DNA of 11,902 nt from a virus (taxonomy: Duplodnaviria; Heunggongvirae; Uroviricota; Caudoviricetes): the IMG/VR virus record IMGVR_UViG_2778261167_000009. One strand, written 5' to 3'. A model generated the notes under the pieces. That model searched no databases and was not told where the DNA came from. It was given only the letters and a program-made list of their open reading frames with translations. Shown here piece after piece: positions 3,264 to 11,677 of this stretch; position 1 is the stretch's first letter, and every line of letters begins with the position of its first letter. Made by a program: the position numbers and the translations under genes.

Positions 3264-4470
3264 CTTTTTCACCTTTAATTTCCACAGTCTGCTTCCATGC
3301 CTGGCTGAACTCGTCACCACCTTCACGCGGCGGCATACCCTCACGCTCACGGGCTTCGTTCGGATTCATGATCCCGTTCTTAATCCCTTTCTCATACGTG
3401 GCATAACGTTCGGTGGGTGTGGCGCGTAATAAATCGGCTGAATCAAACTCAACCAGATAACGGGTACCAGGTACGGGAGAAGCCACCAGCAAAGCGGCCT
3501 TGATTTGCTGTTCGAAGTTCGCCAGCCATGGGCGCATTGTCATGGTCAGAAACGCGCGGCTTGCCTCGCTGAAATTGCTGTAGGTGCTGTTGCTGTATTC
3601 CTGCAGAAAAATAGGCGATACGTTGAACATGCGGGCGATGTCTTCAATGGAGAAGCGACGGGAGGCCAGCCATTCCGCATCCTGGTTACTCATTCCCAGT
3701 TGCTTGTAATCCATGCCCCCTTCAAGGATTGGCGTTTTTCCGGCATTTTTCGCCCCCTTGTAGCGTTCCAGAGCATCTAATGCCTGTTTACCTTTCACGC
3801 CGTCCAGCCATTCGCCTGACGTGATAATCCCTGCCGCCATCATGCCATCTTTCATAATGCTGGCTCCGTGGCGCTGTTGAGCAAGGCCAAGCCCAAGCGC
3901 CTCACGGCAAATCGTGACAGGGGAGCGCCCCAGAAAGCCATCATCCGAGGCATAGCGGAGATGCAGAACTTCTTCCTGTAAATACGTGCGCACCGTTCCT
4001 GTATAGGGTTCGGTGATGGTATAGCGGTATTTGTGTGCGCCTGTGCGTTCCGGTACAACACACCCCGGCGCATAAGGATGAAGTGATTTTGGCTGCCCGT
4101 CCTGCCCCCACTCAATAACCGCATAGGCGTTACCGTTCAGCAGGCAGTGACGCATCATTGTGCGTTTAAACTGGTAAGGTGTCTGGCACGAATTAGGCTG
4201 CTCATTCAGCAGAATATCTACCGGGTGACTGTCCAGCCATTCCCGCGCCTCCCTGCCCTTGTCATTACGTACCAGATACAGATAACACGGCATCGTGGCC
4301 ACCGCCTCAGCGATGACAGAAACCGCGTTCATCACTGCAGGCAATGATTCAGCCGTCCCGGCAGAAACATATTCTCCGGATCCGGTATTCGGTACGCCGG
4401 ACAGCGCCAGAAAATCATCAATGGACAGGTTACGCTGCTCGCTTTTTTTACGACTAAAAGGCCACCACAT
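3256..4470 (-). CDS. Portal protein, HK97 family
   Basis: About 404 aa from the ATG at 4468-4470 (MWWPFSRKKSEQRNLSIDDFLAL...), with portal-like core motifs (FSIEDIARMFNVSPIFLQEY, RPWLANFEQQ). The start lies 1 nt after the protease stop, suggesting coupling. The upstream extension to 4560 is not protein-like. Confidence 0.9.
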   Translation of the reverse strand: MWWPFSRKKSEQRNLSIDDFLALSGVPNTGSGEYVSAGTAESLPAVMNAVSVIAEAVATMPCYLYLVRNDKGREAREWLDSHPVDILLNEQPNSCQTPYQFKRTMMRHCLLNGNAYAVIEWGQDGQPKSLHPYAPGCVVPERTGAHKYRYTITEPYTGTVRTYLQEEVLHLRYASDDGFLGRSPVTICREALGLGLAQQRHGASIMKDGMMAAGIITSGEWLDGVKGKQALDALERYKGAKNAGKTPILEGGMDYKQLGMSNQDAEWLASRRFSIEDIARMFNVSPIFLQEYSNSTYSNFSEASRAFLTMTMRPWLANFEQQIKAALLVASPVPGTRYLVEFDSADLLRATPTERYATYEKGIKNGIMNPNEAREREGMPPREGGDEFSQAWKQTVEIKGEKDE

Positions 4471-4471
4471 A

Positions 4472-5032
4472 TCACAACCCCGCCAGCTCAGACCAGCGAT
4501 GGCGATTATTTCCTGTCGGACGTAATTCAGGGTGCTGTGCAAACAACGAACGGTGGGCAATCTCCACGCCAGATTCTGGATAAGCAGGCATCGACGTTAT
4601 TGTGATTTCACGGAGTTCAGCGGCGGTTACGGTACGCAAATACGGTTTTTGCGCGATACTCCACTCCTCGCATAATGCGCGAAAACCAAAGCTCATTCCT
4701 GTAATGTCGCCACGCTCCACCAGCGTAAGCACATCTTTTCCAAGCTGGGTATCCGGCGGTGTCAGTTCAAAACGTAACCCGGTGTTATCCTCAGTCAGTA
4801 CCAGAGTGCCGGATTTGGTGCGCCCCAGCAGTCGGGTATAGTCATGCTCATACAGGCAGCGCACATCATTACCCGCCGCCAGATAGTCAGCAAAAGCCCC
4901 CGGCGTGAACTGTTCGCGGAATTCGTCCCAGATAATTTCTGAAAGGCTGTTCCAGCGAACGGCATACCCCACCAGCTTTTTATTGCTGGCGGTCAGTTCA
5001 GATGTGCGGATTTCAAAATCGGTGTTTTTCAT
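4472..5032 (-). CDS. Prohead maturation protease, HK97 family (S78/U35-like)
   Basis: 186-aa translation (KKLVGYAVRWNSLSEII, FTPGAF, LYEHD, LGRTKSGTL, GDITGMSFGF). RBS GGAG sits 8 nt upstream of the ATG at 5030-5032. Confidence 0.9.
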   Translation of the reverse strand: MKNTDFEIRTSELTASNKKLVGYAVRWNSLSEIIWDEFREQFTPGAFADYLAAGNDVRCLYEHDYTRLLGRTKSGTLVLTEDNTGLRFELTPPDTQLGKDVLTLVERGDITGMSFGFRALCEEWSIAQKPYLRTVTAAELREITITSMPAYPESGVEIAHRSLFAQHPELRPTGNNRHRWSELAGL

Positions 5033-6542: not shown

Positions 6543-7049
6543 ATGAATTTAAGCGCAATGGTATACCCTGATACTTTCATAATTAATGGCGAATCATTCA
6601 GAGGTAAAAGAAACGCAAAAGAAAACAAGGTATTAATTCCATATACAAATGAACCGGAAGTAACTATTGGTCAACACATTATCCAGCGTGTCGGTAAAAA
6701 CGAGATAAATCTAAAAATTATAGATATGAAGTTGCTTCCCAATGGAACCCTCAGACAGGGAACCAATCATCCAAATATGTTGACTCTCTATATTGAAAAT
6801 ATCACGGGAAATGAACATATGACGCCAACTAAAAGTAATACATTTAACATTGGTTCAATTAGTGGTGATCAAGTGCAGATAGGTGAGCATAACCATATGC
6901 TGGTAAACATCAGCATCACTGAACTGGTTGAAAAAGTCGCTAAATCGGGGGATGTACAAGCCAAATCAGTATTAAAGCAGTTACTGGAAAACAGTACCGT
7001 TGCCAGCATTGTTGGGGCTGGCGCAAGTGCCCTAATAGGCTTACTGTAA
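6543..7049 (+). CDS. Hypothetical 168-aa protein, AT-rich cargo/moron gene; unrecognised N-terminal domain and C-terminal hydrophobic glycine-zipper-like tail
   Basis: The only long plus-strand ORF in the core, opposite to all flanking genes and visibly more AT-rich. Good RBS and its own promoter and terminator. Translation ends ...ENSTVASIVGAGASALIGLL. No family recognised. Confidence 0.7.
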   Translation: MNLSAMVYPDTFIINGESFRGKRNAKENKVLIPYTNEPEVTIGQHIIQRVGKNEINLKIIDMKLLPNGTLRQGTNHPNMLTLYIENITGNEHMTPTKSNTFNIGSISGDQVQIGEHNHMLVNISITELVEKVAKSGDVQAKSVLKQLLENSTVASIVGAGASALIGLL

Positions 7050-7349: not shown

Positions 7350-7775
7350 CTAAAACGGTATGTTGTCCCCGTACGGATCATCGTGCTGACCCGTCTGCTG
7401 TTTTGCCCTGTTCAGTGCGTCAGTCGCCTGGCTCTGCTGGCCTTTTTTGCCGTCCGGTCGCACCGTTCGCGCACTGATTACGCTGTCTGCGATAACCTGC
7501 CAGCCTTGCCGCGTTTCGCCGTTCTGGCCTGTCCACTGGCTTACCTGCATGTTACCCACCACGCTCACCAGTTCGCCTTTGTGGTGTTTTGCCAGTGCAT
7601 CGGCCTGTCTGCCAAACGCCAGAACAGAAAGCCACATCGTCACCGCACCATCATCAGCCTGACTGCATGGCAGGGGGACCGCCATACTTACCATCGCCAT
7701 TTGTGTACCCTTGCTGGTGGTCTTTAACTGTGGGTCATTTGTCAGCCGCCCGTAAGCGGCTATCTGTGCTGTCAT
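7350..7775 (-). CDS. ssb: Single-stranded DNA-binding protein (SSB-like OB-fold) with acidic C-terminal tip ...DNIPF
   Basis: 141-aa translation aligns by eye with bacterial SSB (IAAYGRLTNDPQLKTT..., WLSVLAFGRQADALAKHHKGELVSVVGNMQVSQWT...G..R) and ends DDPYGDNIPF, like the host SSB tip DDDIPF. Strong RBS GGAGGG; ATGA overlap with the upstream ORF. Confidence 0.8.
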   Translation of the reverse strand: MTAQIAAYGRLTNDPQLKTTSKGTQMAMVSMAVPLPCSQADDGAVTMWLSVLAFGRQADALAKHHKGELVSVVGNMQVSQWTGQNGETRQGWQVIADSVISARTVRPDGKKGQQSQATDALNRAKQQTGQHDDPYGDNIPF

Positions 7776-8017
7776 GATTCCATCCCTCCGGTGTTAACGT
7801 TGATGGTTGTCACCTGTTCCGCTTCGGCAATCTCCCGCTCTATCAGCGTGGCAAAATTTGCCGCCGCCGTGGTCATGAATGCGCTTATCAGTTCGGAATG
7901 TGCTTTCGCGTATCCTTCCCCGGCGTTGCGGTCGATGATTTTTATCGACACCCTTAACCAGTGTTCCGTCAAATCAAGGGCGTGCGATTGTGATTTTTTT
8001 GTGTGCTTCGCTGTCAC
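7772..8017 (-). CDS. Hypothetical 81-aa protein (GTG start), between ori and ssb
   Basis: ORF starts with GTG at 8015-8017 and has a weak SD. Its TGA overlaps the ssb ATG. No family recognised; could be shorter or non-coding. Confidence 0.35.
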   Translation of the reverse strand: MTAKHTKKSQSHALDLTEHWLRVSIKIIDRNAGEGYAKAHSELISAFMTTAAANFATLIEREIAEAEQVTTINVNTGGMES

Positions 8018-8063
8018 AGGCTTTATCTCACAGCAGTAAATTAAAATTTTTGCGTTTTAACCC

Positions 8064-8301
8064 TTCACCTGTTCACCTTTTGATATTTTCTCTTTTAATT
8101 CATAATGTTAAGGGGTGAACAGTTTCAAAAAAACTATTCACCAACTGTTCACCACTGTTCACCACTGTTCACCCTTGAAGCTCAATAAACAATCAAAAAG
8201 GTGAACAGTGAATAGTTTGGTGAACAGTTCATAAATAACTGTTCACCCTATAATATACTGATATAAAAGATATTTATGACAGGGTGAACAGTGGTGAACA
8301 G
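8064..8301. repeat. Iteron array, candidate origin of replication (P4-type TGTTCACC iterons)
   Basis: Ten exact copies of CTGTTCACC/GGTGAACAG in both orientations (8069, 8114, 8145, 8155, 8165, 8200, 8219, 8239, 8283, 8293) plus variants CTATTCACC (8134) and GTGAATAG (8208). Three are tandem at a 10-bp period (8144-8173). AT-rich spacers lie between them. Immediately 3' of the primase/helicase gene. Confidence 0.6.
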
Positions 8302-8314
8302 TTATTCCATAAGT

Positions 8315-10132
8315 TTAATTTTTGCTATCGTCATTAGTGACCGATACACATGATGGCATCCAGTCTTCTGATTCCTCCGTCAGTGTCACGTTTGAACGCA
8401 AACCGTGCTTCGTTTTCCGTTTCATATACTCCCTGCCATATTCCGCCATTGCCCCCGGCATATCTTTACCGAAGCGCGTCAGTGTTACAGGTTTACCAAA
8501 CCCATGTGCCCTCATATAAGCCAGATAGGCATGATAGAGATACCTGCGTGGGCTGAATGGCACAATTTCAGCATTACCCACTAACAGGCCATCACACATT
8601 ACCGACGCCATGAGATAGCCGCAGAAGTCCACCAGCGAATCCCCCTCTCGCTTTATCGCCAGTGCTTCTTCAGATTTCTGCTGCTCATATAACAGGCGTC
8701 TGGCTTCGTCCTGGTCAGCAAACCGTGTAAGCAGATGGCGAATCACTACCGCCAGCTCACCTTCTATTTTTTCCGCCAGCATTGGATCACGTTCGTTCTC
8801 CGGTACAACTTCCGAAAAATTGAATATCACCCGACGACGTGAGATCCCCCCGCTGCGGTCACTGAATGACATGGCGTTATTGTTAACCGCCAGCACTACT
8901 GCCGGAATACGTGTTGAGTAGGGGGCTTTGTGTTTCGGGTCAATTGCCACCTTGTCACCGCCTGTAATAGCCTTAATCCCTGCCCCATCACCAGCGTAGC
9001 GGGTCATATCCGGCATGATAATCAGCGAAAAGCCAACCACTAACGCGCGTTCCCTTGCATCTTCCAGCGCCTTCATGCTTGCCGATACTGTGTTGGCCTT
9101 ACCCGCCAGCATGGTGCAAATCTCCGCCATCACGCTTTTACCACTTCCCCCTGGACCTGTTACCTCAATGAATAACTGCCAGTCGTACCGGTTCGCCAGC
9201 ACCATGAATAATGCAGCCAGTACGCGATCCGCCTTGCGGTCATTCTCAGCCACCGAACGGCGTAACCACTTCCAGAAATTCGGCGCATGTGTTGCCAGCG
9301 TTTCCCCCTCTGCTGGTGGGCTGAAAGGTAATTCACTGGCAATTAACAACCAGTCGTTTTTGTTATGCTCCCGAAAATTACCTGTTCTGGTATCAAATAC
9401 CCCGTTACTGAATCCAATCAGGTTACGGGCTGTATTCCCCATTACAGGCAAACTTAACTTCATGGTATCGACCGCTGATTTAATAGCGTTCTGTGAATAG
9501 CTGATCTCCGCATCAATGAAAATCTGCGCCATAGCACGCTGTAACTCTTTATCCTGAACCGGCTCCCATACAACGCCGTTGTAATGGTGAACAGTGTCAG
9601 AGTCAGCATGAATCGCCAGTTCACCACCATAATGTGCCAGGAGAACTTCGCCGCGTTGACTTGCTCCCATCTGGTTAAGCGCCAGTGATGAAGCGTTATC
9701 GTCTTTTACCCGCTCTTTTTTCTTTACAGGCAGTTCAACTACCTTTTTCTTTTCCGCCAGCTCTCCCCGCTCACGCTCCAGATATTCGCGCCAGTTCTCC
9801 CGTTTCTGGCTGTGCATTCCTTCAGGGTAATAATCAGCATCCCTGACACCTGCCGCTGCCAGTTTCTGCCCGATGGTATTAACAAGCACCGGACGCAATA
9901 ACCCCGCCTGATAGAGACGCACGCGATAGCGTCCGTCCGGTACGATTTGCAGGTTGTCCAGTTCGGCAAGTTGTTGCTCTCCAAGCCAGACAGGTGGCAC
10001 GTTATCGCCTGCCAGTCGCCCGTCCTGTTCCTGCCACTGCTTCGCATGTGCCCACGCATCACTACCCGCAAAAATGATGACTTCCGTCATTTTGTCACGC
10101 GGCTGGTGTTTTAAATTTGGCGCTTTTTTCAT
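8315..10132 (-). CDS. Replication protein: P4 alpha-like primase/helicase (D5-N-like domain plus SF3-type P-loop NTPase)
   Basis: About 605 aa from the ATG at 10130-10132 (MKKAPNL...) with RBS GGAGAGAG. Walker A VTGPGGSGKS, Walker B-like LIIMPD, and a D5-N-like central region (NLIGFSNGVFDTRTGNFREH). The ATG overlaps the upstream ORF stop (ATGA). The ORF-track start at 10147 is GTG. Confidence 0.9.
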   Translation of the reverse strand: MKKAPNLKHQPRDKMTEVIIFAGSDAWAHAKQWQEQDGRLAGDNVPPVWLGEQQLAELDNLQIVPDGRYRVRLYQAGLLRPVLVNTIGQKLAAAGVRDADYYPEGMHSQKRENWREYLERERGELAEKKKVVELPVKKKERVKDDNASSLALNQMGASQRGEVLLAHYGGELAIHADSDTVHHYNGVVWEPVQDKELQRAMAQIFIDAEISYSQNAIKSAVDTMKLSLPVMGNTARNLIGFSNGVFDTRTGNFREHNKNDWLLIASELPFSPPAEGETLATHAPNFWKWLRRSVAENDRKADRVLAALFMVLANRYDWQLFIEVTGPGGSGKSVMAEICTMLAGKANTVSASMKALEDARERALVVGFSLIIMPDMTRYAGDGAGIKAITGGDKVAIDPKHKAPYSTRIPAVVLAVNNNAMSFSDRSGGISRRRVIFNFSEVVPENERDPMLAEKIEGELAVVIRHLLTRFADQDEARRLLYEQQKSEEALAIKREGDSLVDFCGYLMASVMCDGLLVGNAEIVPFSPRRYLYHAYLAYMRAHGFGKPVTLTRFGKDMPGAMAEYGREYMKRKTKHGLRSNVTLTEESEDWMPSCVSVTNDDSKN

Positions 10133-10428
10133 TTCTGCTCTCTCCACGCGGCAATCATGTTTTTCAGTTCCTGTAGTTTTTTATCCACATCCACACGTGA
10201 CACATGGTTATTTCTGGAAGGCGGTATTTCCCGCCGGAATCTGCAAATAAAGATCTCCACGTTCAGCGAGCTATGAAATGAATAGCCATCACGAATAAAG
10301 TACACACGGTCAAACATTATCGATTTTACTGTTACTCTGTTGCCGTTCTTATCCCGATAAATAGCGCCGGGGATAATTTTGGGATGTGCATAACCGCTGG
10401 CAGTCAAGCCAGATAAATACGTTCTCAT
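10129..10428 (-). CDS. Hypothetical 99-aa protein, translationally coupled to the primase/helicase
   Basis: Complete ORF with ATG at 10426-10428 and RBS GGGGA; TGA overlaps the primase ATG. No family recognised. Confidence 0.6.
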   Translation of the reverse strand: MRTYLSGLTASGYAHPKIIPGAIYRDKNGNRVTVKSIMFDRVYFIRDGYSFHSSLNVEIFICRFRREIPPSRNNHVSRVDVDKKLQELKNMIAAWREQK

Positions 10429-10434
10429 GATTAT

Positions 10435-10755
10435 TTATCCCCGATTTGAATCAGTATTCGCTTTCTTTATGGCATTTAATGCATCTGTGGCATTTTCAAT
10501 GGTGCACCGTAACGAAATATCAAAATGTCCAAGCATTGCCAGTAACAAACCGATATTACCCATATCAATGCGCATGGCCTTTTCGTCATATTCCTCATTT
10601 TCTGACGCATGCCACATCAGGCTACCAATTGACGCAACAGCCATTGATATATTGTCAGTAGCCCCATCCGCAGCGGAATAAACCTTTTTAGCAATATCAT
10701 GCTCACAGTTAAAATGCGGATTAATCAGGTACTGGTAATTTGACATATCAGGCAT
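10435..10755 (-). CDS. Hypothetical 106-aa protein
   Basis: Complete ORF with ATG at 10753-10755 and RBS AGGGGG; AT-rich. No family recognised. Confidence 0.6.
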   Translation of the reverse strand: MPDMSNYQYLINPHFNCEHDIAKKVYSAADGATDNISMAVASIGSLMWHASENEEYDEKAMRIDMGNIGLLLAMLGHFDISLRCTIENATDALNAIKKANTDSNRG

Positions 10756-10951
10756 GGCACACCCCCTGACGAATACGGGCGGCGAATACCATCACGCAGC
10801 CAGCCGGGGATTGCTGGCGTGCTTCCTGTTCGCTGGTGGCCACGATGTGAATCACGCGCGGTTGTGCCGTGCTCAGGGCGATAAAACGCCAGATGAATTT
10901 ATTCAGGTTGTGCGAGTCCCGCCCTTGCGGGTGTGTGGTATGATTTAACAT
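10748..10951 (-). CDS. Candidate 67-aa first gene of the leftward operon
   Basis: This is the C-terminal in-frame part of the spurious 306-aa ORF. ATG at 10949-10951 is preceded by GAGGT; stop at 10748-10750 overlaps the next gene start. Translation MLNHTTHPQGRDSHNLNKFIWRFIALSTAQPRVIHIVATSEQEARQQ... is plausible but unrecognised. Confidence 0.35.
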   Translation of the reverse strand: MLNHTTHPQGRDSHNLNKFIWRFIALSTAQPRVIHIVATSEQEARQQSPAGCVMVFAARIRQGVCHA

Positions 10952-11047
10952 AGCTACCTCGATACTTCTGCTATCGTTGGTGGTTAGAAGCCCGGTTAGT
11001 GTTAGCGCACTGCCGGGTTTCGTCGTTTCTGCACCTTGCATCAACAA

Positions 11048-11100
11048 GGTGTTAAACACCAATTTAAGCCTAGGTGTTAAACACGTCAAGTGTTGAACAC
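11048..11100. promoter_or_regulatory. Three palindromic operator-like sites overlapping a putative promoter for the plus-strand small-gene module
   Basis: GGTGTTAAACACC (11048-11060), GGTGTTAAACACG (11073-11085), GTGTTGAACAC (11090-11100). The last overlaps a -35-like TTGAAC (11093-11098), with 17-bp spacer and -10-like CATACT (11116-11121). GGTTAG direct repeats lie upstream (10982, 10994, 11000). Confidence 0.45.
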
Positions 11101-11150
11101 TTATTTTTTTTCCTGCATACTGCATTTGTTTTTTGTAAGGAGTACACAAC

Positions 11151-11330
11151 ATGGCGACAAAAGCAGTAAACGCAAAATCACAAACAGTTGCGGCAAGGGT
11201 TCCGCATGAAGTTATGAACAATGTTGAGGCGGTAAAAATGCCTGGTGAAAGTACAGGGCAGTTTGTAACAGCAGCATTAAAGCGAGAAGTTGAATACCGC
11301 CAGCATCGCAAGGCCAAAGAGCAGGAGTAA
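11151..11330 (+). CDS. Arc/MetJ-like ribbon-helix-helix DNA-binding protein, 59 aa
   Basis: Below the ORF-track size cutoff. Strong RBS AAGGAG (11137-11142) 8 nt before the ATG. Translation MATKAVNAKSQTVAARVPHEVMNNVEAVKMPGESTGQFVTAALKREVEYRQHRKAKEQE has a beta-strand then two helices in the RHH pattern. Confidence 0.6.
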   Translation: MATKAVNAKSQTVAARVPHEVMNNVEAVKMPGESTGQFVTAALKREVEYRQHRKAKEQE

Positions 11331-11387
11331 CCATCACCAGCGCCGTGGTGCGGTGAACTGTGGCGCACAGGGTTACAGGTATCTACG

Positions 11388-11567
11388 ATGACTGACAAAT
11401 CATTAAAGAAATTATCCTCATCCAAGAAAAAACAACGCAAAAATGCGGTAAACGAACATGAACCGGAGAGATTCGCACCATGTGCGTTTATCCTTGAGAA
11501 GTACCTTAAAGAGTATTCTAGGAAAATACGCTCATTGCAGGCATGGCAGCGAATCGAGCCAGACTGA
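11388..11567 (+). CDS. Hypothetical small basic protein, 59 aa
   Basis: Below the ORF-track cutoff. ATG at 11388 with weak SD (AGGT); translation MTDKSLKKLSSSKKKQRKNAVNEHEPERFAPCAFILEKYLKEYSRKIRSLQAWQRIEPD. Lies between the RHH gene and the plus-strand terminator. Confidence 0.4.
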   Translation: MTDKSLKKLSSSKKKQRKNAVNEHEPERFAPCAFILEKYLKEYSRKIRSLQAWQRIEPD

Positions 11568-11631
11568 TAGCATTGCCCACTAGCCGACAACCTGGTATTC
11601 TGGATATGCTCAAGTTTAGTGTTATGCCACT

Positions 11632-11660
11632 GGCGACCGCCCCCGGTCGCCTTTGTTTTA
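11632..11660 (+). terminator. Rho-independent terminator ending the plus-strand small-gene module
   Basis: Stem GGCGACCG, loop CCCC, stem CGGTCGCC (11632-11651), followed by TTTGTTTTA. It sits inside the 306-aa minus-strand ORF, arguing that ORF is not real. Confidence 0.6.
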
Positions 11661-11677
11661 TGTGTCATAGCTCCCCC

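Follow-up and report, generated by a model that had tools for sequence, protein, structure and literature searches.

Satellite phage P4 replicates independently of the host proteins DnaA and DnaG. Its alpha protein binds type I iterons, its minimal origin, ori1, comprises 123 bp, and a second binding site, crr, is required in cis. Iterons are also found in plasmids, where they commonly serve both replication and regulatory roles. In the GenBank record of P4, the features annotated as "ori type 1 repeat" fall within ori (9310-9413) and crr (4291-4590), and they correspond to the octamer TGTTCACC or close variants of it.

A related type of origin has been described for PICIs, in which ori lies directly 3' of pri-rep and contains two sets of iterons around an AT-rich region (PMC6092414). 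A rep-ori fragment of the classical PICI EcCICFT073 supports plasmid replication, and the loss of either rep or ori abolishes it (PMC6092414). Two preprints on capsid-forming PICIs (cf-PICIs) make no mention of an origin or of iterons.

Here, we analyzed an 11,902-nt stretch of viral DNA (IMG/VR record IMGVR_UViG_2778261167_000009), referred to below as the window, and found that the 297-bp gap at 8018-8314 is very probably the vegetative replication origin of a cf-PICI, composed of two inverted P4-type units and bound by the replication protein Rep. An origin of this kind is already known; what the analysis adds is the side-by-side architecture of P4 ori- and crr-type units, the specificity classes of iterons among relatives and the doubt cast on the primase assignment of Rep.

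Host island and replication module

The window encodes a capsid protein and a portal protein (Pfam Phage_capsid and Phage_portal), a large terminase, a single-stranded DNA-binding protein (SSB) and Rep. A 98%-identical copy in E. coli A65EC (L001) forms an ~14-kb island between yphF and yphG, which contains genes for an integrase, an HTH regulator, an Icd-like protein, DUF4222, Rep and SSB as well as the capsid, protease, portal, head-tail connector, HNH, TerS and TerL genes; the RefSeq annotation of this island includes the whole set from capsid to TerL and shows no tail or lysis genes. The island matches the published criteria for cf-PICIs (PMC10085698): judged on the near-identical A65EC copy, its size is within 10-18 kb, it has an integrase and modules for regulation and replication, and it carries its own set of genes from capsid to TerL without those for tail or lysis. 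A relative deposited as a phage record, vB_KppS-Ant (16.5 kb, source given as "induced prophage"), shows 76.6% nucleotide identity over ~45% of the window and carries the same array 3' of its primase gene. The replication module of the window comprises the following genes:

7350-7775, minus strand: SSB (Pfam SSB, E=1.2e-16), with the same gene order in L001 and EcCICFT073
7772-8017, minus strand: 81-aa ORF (phrog_1231, no assigned function), directly after the origin, in a position that is occupied in EcCICFT073 too
8315-10132, minus strand: Rep initiator, 605 aa (Pfam D5_N, DUF5906, Pox_D5)
10129-10428, minus strand: DUF4222 gene, overlapping the start of rep, in the same position as in EcCICFT073 (L079 36946-37245)

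The SSB is encoded by the island itself and is part of its replication module. In P4, a small gene, ORF106 (DUF5375; cnr), is located directly upstream of alpha. It has no sequence similarity to the DUF4222 gene, and neither of the two ORFs upstream of rep (a 106-aa ORF and the DUF4222 ORF) showed similarity to P4 ORF106 (Cnr). Further upstream, only the C-terminal part of a 306-aa ORF at 10748-11668 (from about residue 216 on; NCBIfam 258-301) matches Icd-like and repressor families. In A65EC, the RefSeq annotation shows nothing but a 204-nt Icd-like gene at the corresponding position, and the 306-aa ORF is probably not one gene.

Iteron array downstream of rep

Eleven exact copies of the iteron CTGTTCACC occur in the 11.9-kb window, compared to 0.10 expected by chance, as estimated from 200 dinucleotide-preserving shuffles of the window, none of which gave more than one copy. 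Ten of the 11 are clustered within 8069-8301, five per strand:

8069, 8145, 8155, 8165, 8239, plus strand: starts of exact CTGTTCACC copies
8114, 8200, 8219, 8283, 8293, minus strand: starts of exact CTGTTCACC copies
8018-8314, no strand: whole intergenic origin region, between rep and the 81-aa ORF in the ORF list

The copies at 8145, 8155 and 8165 form a tandem triplet with a period of 10 bp, and four more iterons are degenerate, with one to two mismatches. Three of these start at 8062, 8135 and 8207; the fourth, starting at 8055, is weak. The whole array is intergenic and begins 14 bp past the stop codon of rep, in a region (8020-8340) where the G+C content drops to 22-35% versus 50-55% in the flanking genes. 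Neither another cluster of iterons nor another comparable, rep-associated AT-rich non-coding region was found in the entire 14-kb island. Scanning of 7700-8500 for sigma-70 promoter and intrinsic terminator consensus sequences returned none. No DnaA boxes were found within or beside the array, which fits the independence of P4 from the host initiator.

A preliminary description of this DNA had pointed to at least ten exact repeats in both orientations, including three in tandem at a helical-turn period, to AT-rich stretches between them and to the position of the array directly 3' of the replication gene, and all of these features are present, the two main AT-rich stretches being 8078-8113 (81% A+T) and 8248-8282 (80% A+T). 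It had also stated, correctly, that the octamer is that of the P4 type I iterons, since matches to TGTTCACC coincide with the annotated P4 repeats in both ori and crr, and that PICIs place ori just downstream of the replication gene, as is the case both in the published definition (PMC6092414) and in EcCICFT073.

The array is carried by 607 of 5426 complete E. coli genomes. The tandem block at 8145-8173 varies in copy number, with three copies in the window versus two in A65EC and ETEC-2264, and two in every complete E. coli genome among the matches listed (291-nt match to a 301-nt query). The gain of this 10-bp iteron looks rare and was probably a slippage event.

Two-unit architecture of the array

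The earlier reading of the region as an iteron array was right as to the repeats, which are real, but not as to their forming a single set: the array is two inverted copies of one unit, resembling P4 ori and crr placed side by side. In each unit, two iterons are followed by an ~35-bp spacer (80% A+T) and a single inverted iteron; 12 bp further on come two to four closing iterons that are about one helical turn apart. The features of the two units are as follows:

8190-8305, minus strand: rep-proximal unit, homologue of the ori core, from alignment to the P4 ori core
8293-8301 (-), 8283-8291 (-), 8239-8247 (+), 8219-8227 (-), 8200-8208 (-): proximal iterons; degenerate iteron at 8207-8214 (-)
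8248-8282, no strand: proximal spacer, candidate DNA-unwinding element, 35 bp, 80% A+T
8174-8199, no strand: central spacer between the inverted units, 26 bp, 73% A+T
8040-8175, plus strand: rep-distal unit, crr-like, from alignment to the proximal unit and the P4 crr unit
8069-8077 (+), 8114-8122 (-), 8145-8153 (+), 8155-8163 (+), 8165-8173 (+): distal iterons
8062-8069 (+), 8135-8142 (+): degenerate distal iterons
8078-8113, no strand: distal spacer, 36 bp, 81% A+T, containing ttctcttttaatt

Aligned with the proximal unit in reverse complement, the distal unit (8040-8180) shows 76% identity (z=12.6), and the approximate dyad centre is near 8180. The symmetry is also apparent as an inverted repeat, I1, with 54-nt arms at 8091-8144 and 8217-8270 that are 74% complementary. 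At its outer edge, the distal unit carries an A/T tract (aaaattttt).

Comparison with P4 ori and crr

Comparison with P4 ori and crr, a check put forward in the preliminary description, was performed by orientation-aware global alignments of the units with shuffle controls. The iteron octamer TGTTCACC is identical in P4 and in the array, which contains multiple type I iterons of this sequence in both orientations. The proximal unit is identical to the P4 ori core (P4 9300-9420) at 87 of 112 positions (78%, z=16-17) and is oriented in the same way with respect to the replication gene. The offsets of its iterons, counted from the rep side, are 0/10/53/74/93 versus 0/10/53/75/86/96 in P4 ori. The layout of the ori core, with six iterons at approximately helical spacing and an AT-rich stretch of ~35 bp, is present, the sixth iteron being degenerate. 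Both alignment and layout thus make the proximal unit equivalent to P4 ori.

Against a 120-bp unit of P4 crr, the distal unit shows 78% identity (z=10), and it aligns just as well with P4 ori in reverse complement (z=14). Its AT-rich spacer scores z=4.6-4.7 against the crr spacers versus z=-0.9 to 2.5 against the ori spacer, and it has ttctcttttaatt in common with P4 crr. Within P4, ori and crr also align with each other when one of them is inverted (z=8.6). Mismatched pairings of units reach z=4-8 only. The correspondence of the distal unit to crr is not a clean one, as the specific resemblance to crr is confined to its spacer and outer flank. A clean fusion of crr and ori, suggested by strand-blind alignment, was dropped, because the orientation-aware alignment shows that the distal unit, read as its reverse complement, is ori-like as well.

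The position of the array, directly 3' of rep, is that of P4 crr, which is located directly 3' of the alpha gene. On the other hand, P4 ori and crr are ~4.7 kb apart, whereas the two units in the window are contiguous with 26 bp between them, and the bipartite arrangement with ori and crr separated by kilobases is not found here. Moreover, P4 crr is a tandem duplication of a 120-bp unit, whereas the window has one crr-like unit that abuts an ori-like unit, and the t-alpha terminator of P4 has no equivalent detected between rep and the array. In a P4-like locus of Erwinia rhapontici (L016), TGTTCACC clusters were observed at 1052-1144 and 7508-7610, ~3 kb upstream and ~2 kb downstream of the alpha-like gene, which corresponds to the split arrangement of ori and crr.

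The array also shares features with the iteron-containing theta origins of plasmids, namely directly repeated binding sites for the initiator at helical period, an adjacent AT-rich unwinding element and an initiator encoded alongside. It differs from them in that the initiator is itself an SF3 helicase, in that there is no DnaA box in or next to the array, and in that its iterons are 8-9 bp long and present in both orientations, whereas those of plasmids are direct repeats of ~20 bp.

Rep protein

From its N to its C terminus, Rep comprises a domain of ~130 aa without assigned function, D5_N, an SF3 helicase and a winged-helix domain for origin binding. The winged-helix domain spans approximately aa 497-593 when counted from the ATG at 10132, which corresponds to aa 502-598 of the 610-aa ORF starting with GTG. 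Rep is 48% identical to residues 290-771 of P4 alpha, comprising the helicase and the C-terminal domain, and its last ~100 residues match the crystallized origin-binding domain of P4 alpha (PDB 1ka8, E=1.8e-24). Rep has both the SF3 helicase and the C-terminal winged helix that the cognate initiator of a P4-type origin would carry.

The preliminary description had named the neighbouring protein a primase/helicase. A P4-type primase domain was not found: residues 1-117 of Rep have no similarity to the primase region of alpha, residues 1-175 matched no Pfam family, and the zinc motif and EGYATA/TOPRIM region of an alpha-type N-terminal primase are absent from Rep. The database name "DNA primase family protein" derives from TIGR01613, a model of the helicase part, which Rep matches below the cut-off. 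The label "primase" is thus unproven for Rep, and since its N-terminal domain is not recognizable as a primase, the self-priming initiator model of P4 may not transfer to it.

Origin of EcCICFT073

A functionally proven counterpart of the array is found in EcCICFT073, which is located in the chromosome of CFT073 and has the gene order DUF4222, rep, 288 bp, small ORF and SSB, the same as that around rep and the array in the window. Its Pri-Rep is 49% identical to Rep and has the same four-part architecture, including the N-terminal domain, and its origin has the same two-unit map of iterons. As in the PICI-type origin, the array of the window lies directly 3' of the pri-rep gene, and each of its units has a set of iterons on either side of an AT-rich stretch. 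The two origins differ in their iterons, which are of the CTGTCTACC type in EcCICFT073 versus CTGTTCACC in the window, and in the variable segment of the binding domain, RKVKGVTQTN versus KRKTKHGLRSN; the elements differ as well, EcCICFT073 being a classical PICI and that of the window a capsid-forming one. The array is thus a homologue of the proven EcCICFT073 origin, with the iteron specificity of P4.

Covariation of iterons and the Rep binding domain in relatives

Relatives were sought in one genome per species, and 58 of the 72 related loci obtained were analyzed. In those that carry their array 3' of the gene, the two-unit map is kept while the iteron core varies by lineage, and nearly all copies in each array bear the core of their own lineage. 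Protein alignment revealed one segment in the C-terminal domain of Rep with a class-specific sequence for each class of iteron. The classes, with their segments where one was assigned, are as follows:

TGTTCACC core: window, Klebsiella, Citrobacter, Raoultella, Pluralibacter and P4; segment KRKTKHG-[IL]RSNVTL (KRKTKHG-LRSNVTL in the window, KRHTKQG-IQTNLTL in P4)
TGTCTACC core: E. ruysiae, Kluyvera georgiana and Enterobacter hormaechei; segment R[AK][KQ]CT[KR]GPDKGR.I[TS]NVLL, with a five-residue insertion
TGTCCGCC or TGTCCACC core: Serratia; segment of the TGTCCGCC class, KAESKKKATRGRIQSNITL
TGTGCACC core: Proteus
CTCTCTACC core: Symbiopectobacterium; segment TRCIKGV-TQTNVQL
GATGTATAG-type core: Xenorhabdus and Photorhabdus; segment of the Xenorhabdus type, RTKKG-YSYNVEL

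The E. ruysiae locus (L006) is a case in point: its Rep is 98% identical to that of the window in the helicase and 70% identical in the binding domain, where the segment compared is RAKCTKGPDKGRVITNV versus KRKTKHGLRSNV in the window, and its iterons differ, a pattern that would look like a swapped specificity cassette. Judged by the usual topology of this fold and by its position after the third helix, the variable segment is expected to form the beta-hairpin wing; a single-sequence structure model of the binding domain was unreliable (pLDDT 37). Part of this covariation could stem from physical linkage, the array being directly adjacent to the 3' end of the gene. On its own, however, linkage does not account for the coordinated change of at least ten sites in each array within an unchanged layout.

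The spacers behave differently in the two units. The equivalent of the proximal spacer is 35-40 nt long with 60-92% A+T in all 14 relatives mapped (71-92% except in the Symbiopectobacterium locus, L051), irrespective of the class of iteron. EcCICFT073 and L051 have a GC-rich distal spacer (42-43% A+T), whereas their proximal spacer has 60-78% A+T. In these two loci (L079 39170-39225 for EcCICFT073), the distal spacer contains a short perfect inverted repeat (ttactggc...gccagtaa) and takes the place of the AT-rich crr-like spacer of the window.

Proposed mechanism and alternative explanations

The proposal of the preliminary description that the array is an origin bound by the adjacent protein is supported by the homology to P4 ori and crr, the 1ka8-like domain, the covariation of the iterons with one segment of this domain, and the experimentally proven replicon of EcCICFT073, which has the same module. 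Replication of the island could then proceed as follows: (i) the C-terminal winged helix of Rep would recognize the iteron CTGTTCACC; (ii) Rep bound on both flanks of the proximal AT-rich spacer would allow the ring of the SF3 helicase to assemble; (iii) the helicase would melt the spacer, leading to theta replication after induction and excision of the island; and (iv) the island SSB, encoded just downstream, would coat the unwound strands. The distal unit would serve as a crr-like second site for the binding of Rep, adjoining ori in this island. We infer the binding of Rep, the melting of the proximal spacer and the role of the distal unit. The proximal spacer is the most likely site of melting, because it has 60-92% A+T in every lineage mapped, whereas EcCICFT073 and Symbiopectobacterium have a GC-rich distal spacer; 8078-8113 is therefore less likely to be a universal melting site.

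The roles of the two units could also be assigned in another way. If both were equivalent sites for helicase loading, with one Rep hexamer at each spacer, two opposed helicases would give bidirectional replication, as in SV40 and papillomavirus, and the requirement of P4 for crr would reflect the need for a second loading unit. The 76% identity of the inverted units and the repeat I1 are in line with this arrangement, as are the matching spacers of the window island and its closest relatives (35-36 bp, 80-81% A+T) and the inverted relationship between P4 ori and crr (z=8.6), and we regard it as a real, if minority, possibility. It is at odds with the GC-rich distal spacers (42-43% A+T) of EcCICFT073 and L051, which show that the units are not equivalent in all lineages. 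A larger departure would be to view the iterons as mainly regulatory, acting in copy-number control or handcuffing, in incompatibility or in read-through into the ORF and SSB genes, with the start site located elsewhere. Plasmid iterons often have both roles. Moreover, rep is not separated from the genes that follow by a terminator, so that Rep bound to the iterons could influence read-through. We nevertheless consider this explanation improbable, given that the region has no promoter-like site, that the island offers no other iteron cluster or comparable rep-associated AT-rich non-coding region, and that the homologous region of EcCICFT073 is needed in cis for replication (PMC6092414).

Since the island encodes HNH, TerS and TerL, a packaging site must exist somewhere, and the array might be such a cos or pac site, or a recombination site, instead of an origin. 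This is very unlikely: the repeats match the replication iterons of P4 and not cos, they covary with the DNA-binding domain of Rep, they are ~6 kb away from terS, and the same array is present in EcCICFT073, which has no annotated large terminase. Hardly any weight can be given to a simple repeat without function, arisen by chance or slippage. Slippage does occur, as the tandem triplet is polymorphic (three versus two copies), but ten copies compare with 0.1 expected, and layout and spacing are kept from E. coli to Symbiopectobacterium and P4 despite different iterons, a degree of conservation that refutes this reading. The explanation that we favour thus remains an origin in which Rep would act on the proximal, ori-type unit.

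Possible cross-recognition with P4 and wider significance

The finding of an identical iteron together with a P4-like segment of the binding domain in this cf-PICI lineage raises the question of cross-recognition between the two kinds of satellite. Tentatively, P4 alpha and Rep might recognize each other's origins, resulting in cross-activation or in titration of the initiator and incompatibility of the replicons, an idea to which we attach a rather low probability. If it were true, (i) the classes of iteron and binding-domain specificity observed in relatives would represent an escape from cross-talk, and (ii) cross-talk could contribute to the low co-occurrence of P4-like and cfPICI satellites, which are reported to be found together in E. 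coli less often than expected (PMC10085698).

The results locate the origin of a satellite that is very common in E. coli and tie the replication module of PICIs and cf-PICIs directly to the P4 replicon, with identical binding sites; the split ori and crr of P4 appear here as an adjoining pair. The current understanding of these elements is not overturned. The matched variants of iterons and binding domains constitute a natural data set on DNA recognition by this winged-helix domain, and such specificity variants could guide the design of orthogonal satellite-based vectors.

Other iteron-like sequences and matches

An Rfam search of 7600-8700 returned matches at 8061-8299 to hairpins of plant microRNAs (MIR821 and others), scoring 38 bits versus a gathering threshold of 249; these were rejected as artefacts of the inverted repeats. 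The 11th exact iteron lies at 9586-9594 inside the rep ORF, where it encodes T-V-H-H, and a one-mismatch copy is found at 9618-9625, also within the coding sequence of rep. The exact copy at 9586 is present in A65EC and absent in the TGTTCACC-type relatives L004-L009, in which the total count per locus equals the count downstream of the gene, and it is probably coincidental. Three further iteron-like octamers with one mismatch each (TGATCACC, TGCTCACC and TGTTTACC) occur on the minus strand inside 46 bp at 6864-6909, within a 168-aa ORF at 6543-7049 (phrog_5789, no assigned function).
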